A program made the translations under genes and the position numbers. From a virus (lineage: Duplodnaviria; Heunggongvirae; Uroviricota; Caudoviricetes): DNA of 5,058 nucleotides. Below the pieces are notes generated by a model, which saw nothing but the letters and a program-made list of their open reading frames with translations, was not told the origin of the DNA and did not search any database. The stretch lies in the IMG/VR virus record IMGVR_UViG_2693429560_000008. The stretch is one strand, 5' to 3'. Each line of letters opens with the position of its first letter. Position 1 is the stretch's first letter. Shown piece after piece: positions 2,226 to 5,058 of the stretch.

Positions 2226-2449
2226 GAGAGTGGCGCTATGTGCCATTGCATGGTGCCGGGTGCCTCCCGGTGAATTCAGTACCAGCACCTGAATCCGCGA
2301 TTATCCCATATACCTACTCGCTGATTGCCCCTCCGCACAGGGGGATTCACCATGCCAGTTTCTTTTAACAAACTCCCCGCAAACCAGACAACAGTCAACC
2401 GCCTGAATTGTGAAGTATTTAAAAATTTCTCCCGCTAACTGATACCCGG

Positions 2450-2536
2450 CTAACAGTCTGGCGTTTTCTTTTTCAGCAACGGGAAAGCAACAACCACCAC
2501 ACCCGCCACCAGCACACCGTCAGCCAGCACTGACAT
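2450..2536 (-). CDS. possible 28-aa hydrophobic peptide
   Basis: Hand translation of the minus strand gives ATG...TAG: MSVLADGVLVAGVVVVAFPLLKKKTPDC, one hydrophobic stretch then KKK. No convincing RBS; could be a chance ORF in GC-rich low-complexity sequence. Confidence 0.15.
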   Translation of the reverse strand: MSVLADGVLVAGVVVVAFPLLKKKTPDC

Positions 2537-2616
2537 TATCCGGCTGCTGCAATGCCATTCACAAAAACAGTAAGCAATCACTTTTTACCGTAACAGGTGA
2601 TAATCCAGATATGTAT

Positions 2617-2970
2617 CTACCCCAGATGAGTAATCCGAAGTTCATCCATACCACAGGTCCTGGCTATTCTGTTGTACTCCTGAACAAGAGCAAATAATTC
2701 TGAATTAGCAACCATGAACTCATCGCAAACCCTCTGTATAGCATCACTATTCAGAATAATAACGTCTCTTCCCGAAAGACGATCAGGAGTACAGAACAAA
2801 ACTGTCAAACGGCTGAAGGCCTTTGCTCGTGCTGCATTGACTATATCAATACGCTGCCTAAGGATGAAACACCCCGACGCCTCATCAATATTCACTCTAC
2901 CCACACCATATGAATGATAAATATTTAATGCTGAAAAAACCATTAGACCGTATAACAAACACTCAATCAA
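2617..2970 (-). CDS. hypothetical protein, 108-117 aa, copy-2-specific cargo
   Basis: Minus-strand ORF from the track, which begins at a TTG. The first ATG is at 2941-2943 (MVFSALNIYHSYG...). Weak RBS. Lies directly downstream of the tRNA cluster in the slot where Stx phages carry stx, but has no resemblance to Stx A or B. Confidence 0.4.
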   Translation of the reverse strand: MIECLLYGLMVFSALNIYHSYGVGRVNIDEASGCFILRQRIDIVNAARAKAFSRLTVLFCTPDRLSGRDVIILNSDAIQRVCDEFMVANSELFALVQEYNRIARTCGMDELRITHLG

Positions 2971-3080
2971 TACTTAACAGAACTTTTATTTTTGACAAAC
3001 ATAAAATATTTTCAACAATATCCTGAGCCAGGTATATTTCAGTATAAGGCTCTGCCGGAAGGAATCTGGAAGAATGAATA

Positions 3081-3157
3081 TGGCGCGCTGTACTGGATTC
3101 GAACCAGTGACCGATTGCTTAGAAGGCAATTGCTCTGTCCGGCTGAGCTAACAACGC
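3081..3157 (-). tRNA. argO: tRNA-Arg, anticodon TCT (copy 2)
   Basis: Same as 1087-1163 except tRNA position 69 is G instead of A, turning the U4-A69 pair into a U4-G69 wobble. Confidence 0.85.
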
Positions 3158-3170
3158 ATGATGCAGATAA

Positions 3171-3247
3171 TGGACCGCCATCGGGGACTTGAACCCCGCG
3201 CAGCCAGCTTCGAAGGCTGGCGCTCTTTCCTGATGAGCTAATGGCGG
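3171..3247 (-). tRNA. argN: tRNA-Arg, anticodon TCG (copy 2)
   Basis: Identical to 1177-1253. Confidence 0.75.
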
Positions 3248-3254
3248 TATGTGA

Positions 3255-3330
3255 TGGTGGCCCTTGCTGGATTTGAACCAGCGACCTGGCGATTATGAGT
3301 CGCTCGCTCTCACCACTGAGCTAAAGGGCC
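3255..3330 (-). tRNA. ileZ: tRNA-Ile2, anticodon CAT (copy 2)
   Basis: Identical to 1261-1336. Confidence 0.85.
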
Positions 3331-3370
3331 GGGAGCCGCATAATAACGACGCGTAATTAATTCTTCAATA

Positions 3371-4429
3371 TCATCCGTTCTGGCTGACTAAATCCTGTAC
3401 TTCCCGAACCGTCTGCTCAAAACGTTCAGTCTCCAGCTCAACGCCAATTGCACGACGCCCGAGCGCCAGTGCCGCTTTCACTGTCGAACCCAACCCCATG
3501 AAAAAATCTGCAATCAGGTCACCCGGACGACTGCTAGCGCTGATTATCTGCTGCAGCATTTCTGCCGGTTTTTCGCACGGATGTTTCCCGGGATAGAACT
3601 GCACCGGTTTATGCGTCCACACATCGGTATACGGCACCTGCACCGTCACGCCAAAATACCGCCGCAGATGTTTATATTCACTCAGCAGCTCCGCATACTG
3701 CCGGTTCAGTGAGGTATACGTATCCACCAGCTGGTGGTGGAGCTTTTCCAGTTCACCACGCCGATGCTTCTCTTCTGCCACCCGGGCAAACAGCGCCTGT
3801 AATTTCAGATAATCGCTTTCATTCGGCAACTGCCACTGACCGGCACTGAACCAGTGCGACACCATGTTTTTCTTTCCTGTGGCATCTGCAATCTGTTTTG
3901 CCGTTATCCCCAGGGCAGCTCGCGCATCACGAAAGTAAGAAATCAGCGGGGCCATCACATGCTGTTTCAGTGCACTGCCCTTCGCCGCATACCCGGCATC
4001 TTTCGGACGATACGGCCCCTGATAATGTTCCGCGAACAGAATGCGCTCTGTGGCGGGGAAATACGCCCGCAGGCTTTCCTTGTTGCATCCGTTCCAGCGT
4101 CCGGACGGCTTCGCCCAGATAATATGGTTCAGCACACTGAAGCGTTCACGCATCATGATTTCGATATCAGATGCCAGGCGATGACCACAGAACAGGTAAA
4201 GACTTCCGGCAGGTTTCAGCACCCGCCAGAACTGCGCCAGACACTGGTCCAGCCACTTCAGGTAATCATCGTCGCCCTTCCACTGGTTATCCCAGCCCTC
4301 AGGCTTCACTTTAAAGTACGGCGGGTCCGTGACTATCAGGTCAACAGAATTTTCGGGTAACGACCGGATAAATTCCAGGCAGTCGGCGTTGATTAACTCA
4401 CAACTGGATATTTTTACAGTATTAAGCAT
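3371..4429 (-). CDS. N6-adenine DNA methyltransferase, beta-class, apparently orphan
   Basis: 352-aa ORF. Catalytic motif DPPY near the N-terminus (LIVTDPPY) and AdoMet-binding motif DFFMGLGST near the C-terminus; that motif order defines beta-class amino-methyltransferases. No restriction endonuclease partner in the window. Confidence 0.9.
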   Translation of the reverse strand: MLNTVKISSCELINADCLEFIRSLPENSVDLIVTDPPYFKVKPEGWDNQWKGDDDYLKWLDQCLAQFWRVLKPAGSLYLFCGHRLASDIEIMMRERFSVLNHIIWAKPSGRWNGCNKESLRAYFPATERILFAEHYQGPYRPKDAGYAAKGSALKQHVMAPLISYFRDARAALGITAKQIADATGKKNMVSHWFSAGQWQLPNESDYLKLQALFARVAEEKHRRGELEKLHHQLVDTYTSLNRQYAELLSEYKHLRRYFGVTVQVPYTDVWTHKPVQFYPGKHPCEKPAEMLQQIISASSRPGDLIADFFMGLGSTVKAALALGRRAIGVELETERFEQTVREVQDLVSQNG

Positions 4430-4461
4430 GGATCATTAAGCCTGTCTCTGATAGGCTCATT

Positions 4462-4551
4462 CTGCTTTTGCGCAAAGCAGTGGGCCTGAGGTTTGCTTGT
4501 GAACCCAACGCATGAGCAGATGGCTGGTGGGTGCCCCTAACACCCACCAGC
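4462..4551. promoter_or_regulatory. inverted repeats in the leader upstream of the methyltransferase gene
   Basis: Perfect 11-bp inverted repeat GCTGGTGGGTG / CACCCACCAGC (4523-4533, 4541-4551) with a 7-nt spacer, and a 7-bp inverted repeat CTGCTTT / AAAGCAG (4462-4468, 4474-4480). Neither is followed by a U-tract on either strand. Confidence 0.3.
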
Positions 4552-4565
4552 CGCCCATTTACCAC

Positions 4566-4593
4566 AAATAAAAAAGCCTTCACTGCGGAAGGC
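4566..4593 (-). terminator. intrinsic terminator after the 65-aa gene
   Basis: Minus strand: stem GCCUUC, loop CGCAGU, stem GAAGGC, followed by UUUUUUAUUU. The stem overlaps the stop codon of the 65-aa ORF. Confidence 0.5.
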
Positions 4594-4777
4594 GTCTGTA
4601 ACAACCGAACTGATAGTCTGCCAGACCCGCCATAACCAGCTGGGTCAGTATTAACTGGCAGCGTTCGCGTGAAAGGTAAGTATTCTGCGCTATCTCCCCG
4701 ACTGTCGCCGGTTCGGTAACGCTTAATTCATTAAACACCACTCTGGCGGTTTCTGTCATATCCTGCTGTTTTAGCAT
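4580..4777 (-). CDS. small putative DNA-binding protein, 65 aa
   Basis: AGGA sits 6 nt upstream of the ATG. The pattern TVGEIAQNTYLSRERCQLILTQLVMAGL is helix-turn-helix-like and weakly resembles FaeA/PapI-type winged-helix regulators, from memory. Confidence 0.5.
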   Translation of the reverse strand: MLKQQDMTETARVVFNELSVTEPATVGEIAQNTYLSRERCQLILTQLVMAGLADYQFGCYRRLPQ

Positions 4778-4896
4778 GTCTTTTCCTTTTCCGGTTAACG
4801 TGACACACCAATAACTCTTGTCGAAAAAGCCAGCAAGCTGAAAGACAGGTATTCACCGCCACCAGCGCGTTTACTGTACTGACGCGATTTCAGTCA

Positions 4897-4920
4897 TAAA
4901 AAACCCGCTCGGCGGCGGGT
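4897..4920 (-). terminator. tR'-like intrinsic terminator
   Basis: Minus strand: stem ACCCGC, loop CGCCGA, stem GCGGGU, followed by UUUUUU. About 65 nt downstream of the putative pR'. Confidence 0.55.
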
Positions 4921-4968
4921 TGTAGAAACTCTTCTAACGTCAGGCATAAAACGCCCATCGTTATGACG

Positions 4969-4996
4969 AATTTACCACAGATTCCGGAAAAATCAA
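4969..4996 (-). promoter_or_regulatory. pR'-like late promoter
   Basis: Minus strand: -35 TTGATT (plus 4991-4996), 16-nt spacer, extended -10 TGgTAAATT (plus 4969-4977). It sits between the end of the upstream ORF and the tR'-like terminator, the layout expected for a lambdoid pR'/tR' unit. Confidence 0.4.
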
Positions 4997-5001
4997 CCTT
5001 G

Positions 5002-5058
5002 TTACCTAGTTACCTTTTTTAACTGCCGCTCAGCCCATGCTTCTTCAATATCAAACCG
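5002..5058 (-). CDS. 3' end of an upstream minus-strand gene, possibly the Q antiterminator (partial)
   Basis: Two minus-strand frames stay open to the window edge: one ends ...RFDIEEAWAERQLKKVTR with stop at 5002-5004, the other ...GLILKKHGLSGS with stop at 5019-5021. The frame cannot be resolved. Identity is inferred only from position upstream of the pR'-like promoter. Confidence 0.2.
   Translation of the reverse strand, partial: RFDIEEAWAERQLKKVTR

Follow-up and report, generated by a model that had tools for sequence, protein, structure and literature searches.

The window analysed here is a stretch of 5,058 nucleotides from a virus of the Caudoviricetes (IMG/VR record IMGVR_UViG_2693429560_000008), and the gene in question is an open reading frame at positions 3371-4429 on the minus strand, which starts with ATG and encodes 352 amino acids. 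With a probability of roughly four in five, this gene is a Shigella-lineage allele of the prophage M.EcoGI/M.EcoGII family, that is, an orphan beta-class methyltransferase that acts on N6 of adenine without sequence specificity and belongs to the Q-dependent late unit of a lambdoid prophage. An earlier note, made from the letters of the window alone, had described an orphan beta-class N6-adenine methyltransferase of the late operon, and that description is largely right: the reading frame is real and its coordinates are exact, to which the strand, left unstated, can be added. The note was wrong in treating the target specificity as unknown, and it missed a leucine-for-serine substitution in motif I (S313L), a truncated second copy of the gene, a structured RNA leader and the decay of the prophage.

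Class membership is clear from the protein itself. Motif IV, TDPPYF, with DPPY at residues 35-38 (window 4316-4327), precedes motif I, F-M-G-L-G, at residues 310-314 (3488-3502), and this is the beta-class order. The Pfam family PF01555 (N6_N4_Mtase) matches residues 29-340 with E=7.9e-42 and 144 bits, against a curated cut-off of 26.7, and the PADLOC model MTase_II PDLC03265 gives 540 bits across the full length. Solved beta-class enzymes are also matched, with E values spanning 1e-14 to 1e-21: M.RsrI (6.5e-21), CcrM (2.5e-18), M1.MboII/MboIIA (1.4e-14) and DpnA. Motif order on the one hand, and profile score together with homology to solved enzymes on the other, thus bear out the class given in the earlier note.

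How close is the protein to the type enzymes? M.EcoGI and M.EcoGII both come from Escherichia coli O104:H4 strain C227-11 and are identical at 333 of 349 residues (PMC5778455). The window protein shares 336 of 348 aligned residues (97%) with WP_000935536.1, a 349-residue methyltransferase of a C227-11 prophage. It shares at least 324 of 349 residues (at least 92.8%, about 93%) with the M.EcoGII sequence printed in PMC11551740, a lower bound because the copy in that supplement was machine-read with a few errors. The C227-11 locus protein (NZ_CP011331.1, 2234080-2235129) has about 16 genuine differences from the M.EcoGII sequence, which fits the published relation between the two enzymes, and it is therefore presumed to be M.EcoGI. 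A corrected 349-residue reconstruction of M.EcoGII gave no exact match in the sequence collection searched, and it weighs somewhat against the assignment that identity to the true M.EcoGII sequence is an estimate only. Relative to M.EcoGII (GenBank EGT69837.1), the window allele has the same class, the same start codon and N-terminus (MLNTVKISS...), a similar length (352 vs 349 residues) and a prophage location; it differs by about 24 substitutions, S313L and S197G among them, and by a C-terminus three residues longer, and its activity is predicted from the resemblance.

M.EcoGII methylates adenine in any context; it is encoded by a prophage, silent in its host and toxic on expression (PMC5778455). 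The defining activity of the M.EcoGI/M.EcoGII family covers double-stranded DNA, single-stranded DNA and RNA alike. Homologs at about 93% identity are given as 'nonspecific' in a methylome study of O111, and homologs of M.EcoGI and M.EcoGII are without an assigned methylation motif in published methylomes (PMC6602927). At 93-97% identity to M.EcoGII/M.EcoGI, the window enzyme's specificity is thus no blank: motif-free adenine methylation would be the expected activity, and a new motif is not to be anticipated.

The surroundings point to the same family. Searched as a whole, the window has matches in 366 phage records, most of them from Shiga toxin (Stx)-converting phages, where the aligned genes are annotated as DNA methylase, tRNA-Arg, tRNA-Ile and stx2A/B. 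O104:H4 strains, C227-11 among them, are the complete E. coli genomes that match best (96.8%). The exact protein is found on at least 997 contigs and in 4,314 index blocks, and occurs in thousands of Shigella assemblies; its entries are labelled 'site-specific DNA-methyltransferase [Shigella sonnei]' or 'MULTISPECIES [Shigella]'. Close full-length identity to the type enzymes thus goes together with a lambdoid-prophage location that has no restriction partner. Both the enzyme family and its genomic slot are already known, the type enzyme is a commercial reagent, the prophage location has been published; the novelty of the gene is low, and it adds little beyond one more allele.

That the gene lies in the late operon, as the earlier note had it, is supported by what precedes it on the minus strand. 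The window opens, on that strand, with the 3' end of a Q antiterminator gene (5002-5058, stop TAA 5002-5004), which in the S. sonnei loci that align to the window at 99.7% encodes a 273-residue PF03589 (Antiterm) protein. A late promoter of the lambda pR' type follows at 4957-4996, with a -35 element TTGATT (4996-4991), a -10 element TAAATT (4974-4969) and a pause element, AACGAT then GGG (4962-4957). In full it reads TTGATT-N16-TAAATTcgtcatAACGATGGG, where cgtcatAACGATGGG comes directly after TTGATT-N16-TAAATT, and it aligns with lambda pR', TTGACT-N17-TAAATTtgactcAACGATGGG, the promoter-proximal pause element included. Homology, together with what is established about lambda pR', is the basis for this assignment; a simple promoter scan did not flag the site. 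The pR'-like promoter carries the AACGAT pause element although Q here is of the 273-residue PF03589 type.

Two intrinsic terminators, both found by the terminator scan, stand between this promoter and the methyltransferase gene. The first, of the tR' type, lies between the Q stop codon and the small gene orf65 (annotated at 4892-4921 on the minus strand, and within narrower bounds at 4921-4902; AACCCGCCGCCGAGCGGGTT then TTTTAT), and a pR' transcript stopped there would be about 70 nt long, comparable to lambda 6S RNA. The second overlaps the stop codon of orf65 (annotated at 4566-4593 on the minus strand, and within narrower bounds at 4593-4576; GCCTTCCGCAGTGAAGGC then TTTTTTATTT). On the minus strand between this second terminator and the methyltransferase ATG, the promoter scan found no sigma-70-like site. 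With Q and pR' and two terminators upstream, and nothing resembling a promoter ahead of the ATG, the gene is placed in the Q-dependent late unit; it counts against this placement that the scan is crude and that there may be an internal promoter. Late expression would fit the published silence of M.EcoGII in lysogens (PMC5778455), and likewise the idea that induction is when temperate phages express enzymes of this kind (PMC5778455, PMC12707154).

The gene order is widely shared. In C227-11, the order is Q, a 65-residue open reading frame, the methyltransferase, three tRNAs, small open reading frames, a SASA esterase, holin and lysozyme, and complete S. sonnei chromosomes have the same core. 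This presumed M.EcoGI locus has in common with the window Q, orf65, the leader, the methyltransferase, the three tRNAs, DUF3927, IraM, the SASA esterase and holin; it differs in having neither the 1,374-bp repeat nor the truncated gene copy of the window, and in having serine at residues 197 and 313. Stx2a-converting phages (e.g. Stx2a_WGPS2, gp29, and phage 1720a-02) carry the same module of orf65, leader, 352-residue methyltransferase and ileZ-argN-argO at 93-94% nucleotide identity, with stx2AB behind the tRNAs, whereas the window has in that slot a 117-residue open reading frame, a DUF3927 reading frame, the STnc100 small RNA (sRNA) and IraM. More broadly, in 80 species-level enterobacterial loci the methyltransferase lies downstream of Q proteins of differing types and upstream of holin/lysozyme genes.

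What, then, might control translation of such an enzyme? Directly ahead of the gene, at 4430-4567 on the minus strand, is a conserved structured RNA leader of 138 nt with helices P1 to P5, which ends at the methyltransferase AUG (covariance model R1, 128 bits, E=1.5e-32). Of the 80 genome loci (L013-L092), 54 have exactly one copy by this model, on the strand of the gene and ending at the ATG, and the model also finds the leader in the window, C227-11, S. sonnei and a Stx2a phage at 76-157 bits; its coordinates are 8984-9124 in L001 and 7813-7953 in L012. Among 120 viral contigs that have the core pattern of the leader, the methyltransferase is directly downstream in 114. The spacer between orf65 and the methyltransferase has a length of 147-154 nt across genera, with a mean column identity of 80%, which is above that of the flanking coding sequence. 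The leader is also present in loci that have no orf65, where it comes right behind a terminator. No Shine-Dalgarno sequence is visible ahead of the methyltransferase AUG.

The helices are P1 (UGGGC/GCCCA), P2 (a long variable hairpin), P3 (UUCGCU..UG/CA..AGCGAA), P4 (GCUUU/AAAGC) and P5 (GAGCC/GCUU, just before the AUG), and they are supported by covariation. In 29 diverse sequences, standard pairs fill 88.5% of cells, vs 32-43% when the 3' partners are slid by one to three columns; 14 pairs show compensatory change, and none of 500 shuffles reaches the observed score. With 80 distinct sequences the corresponding values are 92.9% vs 30-43%, 15 pairs and again 0 of 500 shuffles, in an alignment that was fitted to the leader model and so leans towards the structure. 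The covariation resides mostly in P2 and P3, while P1 and P4 hardly vary and P5 is weak. An alternative helix beside the AUG (GGUCA/UGAUC) pairs in 96% of cells with little variation and is uninformative.

Could the conserved sequence act as DNA instead? A palindrome or protein-binding site is disfavoured, as two pairs are frequently G-U wobbles on the sense strand (UG in 25 of 80 and GU in 13 of 80 sequences), which would be C-A mismatches on the other strand; these speak for RNA and against a palindrome in the DNA. A reading as an extended -10 promoter, TGTGAAAAT, was also considered, and this sequence is not conserved in the version of the leader found in phage lambda. No family for the leader was found among the 4,227 covariance models of Rfam, where the best match was P26 at 24 bits vs a gathering threshold of 36, on the opposite strand, and a literature search based on the leader sequence gave nothing relevant. 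As a tentative proposal, with odds well short of even, the leader may represent an undescribed family of cis-acting structured RNA that gates translation or stability of the toxic methyltransferase, its 5' module being a general lambdoid late-leader RNA. The best guess as to function is that the leader gates the first late gene, through either translation or stability. Possible mechanisms are a ligand-sensing switch, e.g. for S-adenosylmethionine (SAM) or S-adenosylhomocysteine (SAH), or self-methylation by an enzyme that is capable of acting on RNA.

A shorter version of the leader exists apart from the methyltransferase. In four viral contigs, a 94-100 nt version lies upstream of holin genes with no methyltransferase, and phage lambda itself (NC_001416, 45016-45129) has the short version about 55 nt before S; 94 further lambda-type copies were found, 71 of which lie 80-99 nt before a recognised holin gene. 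Coordinates of the short version are 1217-1330 in L213 (corresponding to NC_001416 45016-45129), 4257-4350 in L115 and 12156-12249 in L202, with additional copies in L214-L326. The late leader of lambda shares with the methyltransferase leader its 5' half, i.e. the GUGAAA box, the long hairpin P2, P3 and the UCAC..AAC..AA box, as well as a fixed distance ahead of the first late gene; it differs in length (about 95-115 nt), in having no P4, P5 or GCCCA strand of P1, and in preceding a holin gene. With the short version standing before holin genes, lambda S among them, the 5' half of the leader appears by sequence comparison to be shared by lambdoid late leaders in general, and the 3' half to be peculiar to the methyltransferase. 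We know of no described function for the short leader of lambda. The long hairpin of lambda-type copies often has a mismatch at one position (GGCAnGAGG vs CCUCnUGCC).

Is the window allele still active? Two substitutions raise the question. Leucine 313 (codon TTG, 3491-3493) lies between the two glycines of FxGxG in motif I, and glycine 197 (codon GGT, 3839-3841) lies within a conserved WFSxSQW stretch. Several observations weigh against an active enzyme. Position 313 is serine in 141 of 142 close relatives (74-98% identity) and leucine in none of them, and among 125 distant relatives it is serine in 104, threonine in 7, glycine in 6, histidine in 2 and leucine in 1; the consensus SAM-binding loop of the family, D-F-F-M-G-S-G-S-T, is thus broken in the window allele by leucine at 313. 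Position 197 is serine in 139 of 146 close relatives. Finally, the host prophage is riddled with insertion sequence (IS) elements, so that the gene may be decaying and is perhaps never induced.

The gene could therefore be an intact-looking but hypomorphic or dead relic, an enzyme that was crippled in the Shigella lineage by one change in the SAM-binding loop (S313L) and another in the target-recognition region (S197G), and that a defective prophage no longer needs. Both changes are confined to the Shigella allele, and each is a single transition (TCG to TTG, AGT to GGT). The nearest relatives, P0181 and P0182 of S. boydii, have the other substitutions of the lineage in common and retain both serines, which suggests that S313L and S197G are recent. 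The S. sonnei chromosomes show the prophage broken by IS1 and IS3-family elements and without a lysozyme gene. In the window, an IS3-family end at positions 1-73, 100% identical to several S. sonnei copies, truncates the DUF1737/SASA esterase gene (nanS-p type, 26-214) after about 50 codons, and the partial duplicate of the methyltransferase gene is a sign of local rearrangement. On the other side, the frame is full length and the exact protein recurs in thousands of assemblies, a weak point given that S. sonnei is clonal; every other invariant residue of the family is intact; and position 313 is the 'x' of FxGxG, at which a few family members tolerate glycine, histidine or leucine. A literature search turned up no mutational data for the serine of motif I. 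A relic is thus a real but minority prospect, and there is about one chance in three that the enzyme is seriously impaired. S313L lowers confidence in the activity of the allele and leaves its ancestry unchanged. The Shigella allele constitutes a natural test of how essential the motif I serine is, and it is also a marker of prophage decay.

Other readings of the M.EcoGI/M.EcoGII relationship fare much less well. An orphan enzyme with its own recognition motif, serving epigenetic regulation of host or phage genes, as in the alternative offered by the earlier note, might be suggested by the database name 'site-specific DNA-methyltransferase' and by a central target-recognition region like that of sequence-specific beta-class enzymes. 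It is improbable given the 93-97% identity to enzymes shown or listed as non-specific (PMC5778455; PMC6602927) and the homologs for which methylomes yielded no motif, and a location behind two terminators, with homologs silent in lysogens, does not suit a standing epigenetic role. Just as doubtful is the notion that RNA, either the adjacent phage tRNAs or late mRNA, is the relevant substrate in place of DNA. M.EcoGII does act on RNA and on DNA:RNA hybrids in vitro (PMC5778455, PMC11551740), and three tRNA genes adjoin the methyltransferase in Escherichia-type loci; these tRNAs are, however, found behind the gene only in loci of that type and not in the other approximately 75 species-level loci, and RNA is methylated much more weakly than DNA (PMC5778455).

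The absence of a cognate endonuclease, which the earlier note had reported for the window, extends to its surroundings. Scans of open reading frames and with Pfam, PHROG and PADLOC showed no nuclease-like protein in the window, and no nuclease is annotated or detected within 6-10 kb of the homologous locus in C227-11, eight complete S. sonnei chromosomes and one Stx2a phage; a partner just outside the window was sought to ±6-10 kb in these genomes, and PADLOC gave no nuclease match among neighbouring proteins. A type II restriction-modification system, with its adjacent cognate endonuclease gene, is thus not what is seen here. That the gene is the modification half of a pair whose nuclease lies outside the window is very improbable: a DUF968 protein with a weak HNH-like match is encoded upstream of Q in prophages of the same type, and one phage record annotates it as 'HNH endonuclease', but the DUF968 gene belongs to the early nin region with RusA and Q in between, its product has no PADLOC restriction match, the eight complete chromosomes show no other nuclease within ±10 kb, and the DUF968/HNH protein was rejected as a restriction partner. 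DUF968 genes are also present in lambdoid prophages that do not have this methyltransferase, e.g. YdfU in Qin of K-12. To our knowledge, there is no precedent for a nuclease paired with a non-specific methylase.

For the non-specific enzyme of the late unit, a course of events can be proposed. The unit is read as Q, pR', tR', orf65, the second terminator, the leader, the methyltransferase, ileZ-argN-argO, a moron slot and the lysis genes; the moron slot holds stx2 in Stx phages and IraM, the STnc100 sRNA and small open reading frames here. In the lysogen, pR' transcripts would end at the terminators and the toxic enzyme would stay silent. On induction, RNA polymerase modified by Q would read through, and the enzyme would be made along with the late proteins. 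Replicating phage DNA would then become heavily methylated, and in the next host the progeny would withstand many restriction systems that are sensitive to adenine methylation. The folded leader, which abuts the AUG with no Shine-Dalgarno sequence, probably adds a gate at the translational or RNA level. Protection of progeny DNA, which the earlier note had put forward, agrees with the role published as a proposal for M.EcoGII (PMC5778455, PMC12707154).

Phage Mu offers an analogy in its com-mom operon, where a toxic DNA-modification gene of relaxed specificity is silent in the lysogen and has a small open reading frame and RNA structure at its translation start. The methyltransferase gene would likewise be a toxic, lysogen-silent DNA modification gene behind a small open reading frame and an RNA structure. 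The likeness is one of function only: the sequences are unrelated, Mom is no methyltransferase, and orf65 is missing from about one third of the leader-bearing loci, so that a Com-like activator is no general requirement. A role for orf65 as a Com-like translational activator acting on the leader was accordingly rejected as a general mechanism, there being about 22 leader loci without orf65 or any other recurrent small open reading frame upstream. Mom and M.EcoGII have been paired in one publication (PMC12707154).

The remaining genes of the late unit include orf65 itself, at 4580-4777 on the minus strand, which encodes a putative winged-helix protein of 65 residues (weak Pfam match to TrmB, E=0.0026; PHROG 331, function unknown, 1.4e-37). 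The methyltransferase has orf65 as its immediate upstream neighbour in 53 of the 80 genome loci and in 104 of the 120 viral contigs. The identity of orf65 falls to 37% in Xenorhabdus and Photorhabdus, and it is absent from many loci that retain the leader. Behind the methyltransferase, at 3081-3330 on the minus strand, are three phage tRNAs identified by ARAGORN and Rfam, with a CAT anticodon (ileZ type), Arg-TCG (argN) and Arg-TCT (argO); C227-11 and Stx2a phages likewise have this trio behind the methyltransferase, and RefSeq labels the first one there tRNA-Ile. The gap from the methyltransferase stop codon to the first tRNA contains a sigma-70-like sequence, TTGAAG-N17-TATTAT (3340-3368, minus strand), which is repeated at 1346-1374; it may be a promoter of the tRNA genes. 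The slot occupied by stx2AB in Stx2a phages is filled here by a unique segment (2426-3067) with a 117-residue open reading frame at 2617-2970 (PHROG 2873, function unknown) and a 43-residue DUF3927/TciB-like reading frame at 2450-2581.

Part of the late unit is duplicated. At 1075-1743 on the minus strand, self-BLAST shows a second copy of the 3' third of the methyltransferase gene (residues 232-352, open reading frame 1377-1733) together with the tRNA trio (1087-1336). Segment A (3068-3737) matches 1075-1743 at 99.25%, and the two copies are identical over the 649 bp of 3089-3737; segment B (1744-2425), which holds IraM and the STnc100 sRNA, recurs at 370-1051 with 99.1% identity. The second methyltransferase piece starts inside codon 231 and has neither DPPY nor a leader, and therefore cannot encode an active enzyme. 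How did the duplication arise? The 1,374-bp repeat is absent from complete E. coli and S. sonnei genomes. It may be an assembly artefact, as the perfect identity of the two A copies over 649 bp might suggest; however, the B/A' junction (1743/1744) has no microhomology, and thus no common sequence to mislead an assembler, and an independent 5.2-kb draft contig (L010) shows the same order at 99.4% identity. The pattern of the two interleaved direct repeats, A-U-B/A'-j-B', would be consistent with a circular A-U-B segment having integrated through recombination in A.

The duplicated B segment carries prophage cargo. There are two identical copies of an IraM-type anti-adapter gene on the plus strand (460-795 and 1834-2169; NF007393, E=5e-48), i.e. 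on the strand opposite to late transcription. Two copies of the STnc100 sRNA (RF02076) are found on the minus strand (821-1010 and 2195-2384; 132-134 bits), just beyond the 3' end of each IraM gene and on the opposite strand.

The structured leader is the main point worth following up, ahead of the S313L allele and the partial duplication. Strongly conserved and supported by covariation, it runs right up to the start codon of these toxic enzymes in many genera of enterobacteria, and part of it stands before the lysis genes of lambda-like phages. If functional, the leader would be a hitherto unrecognised means of control in the phage late operon that has been studied best, and may explain how a lethal methylase is kept silent in the lysogen.

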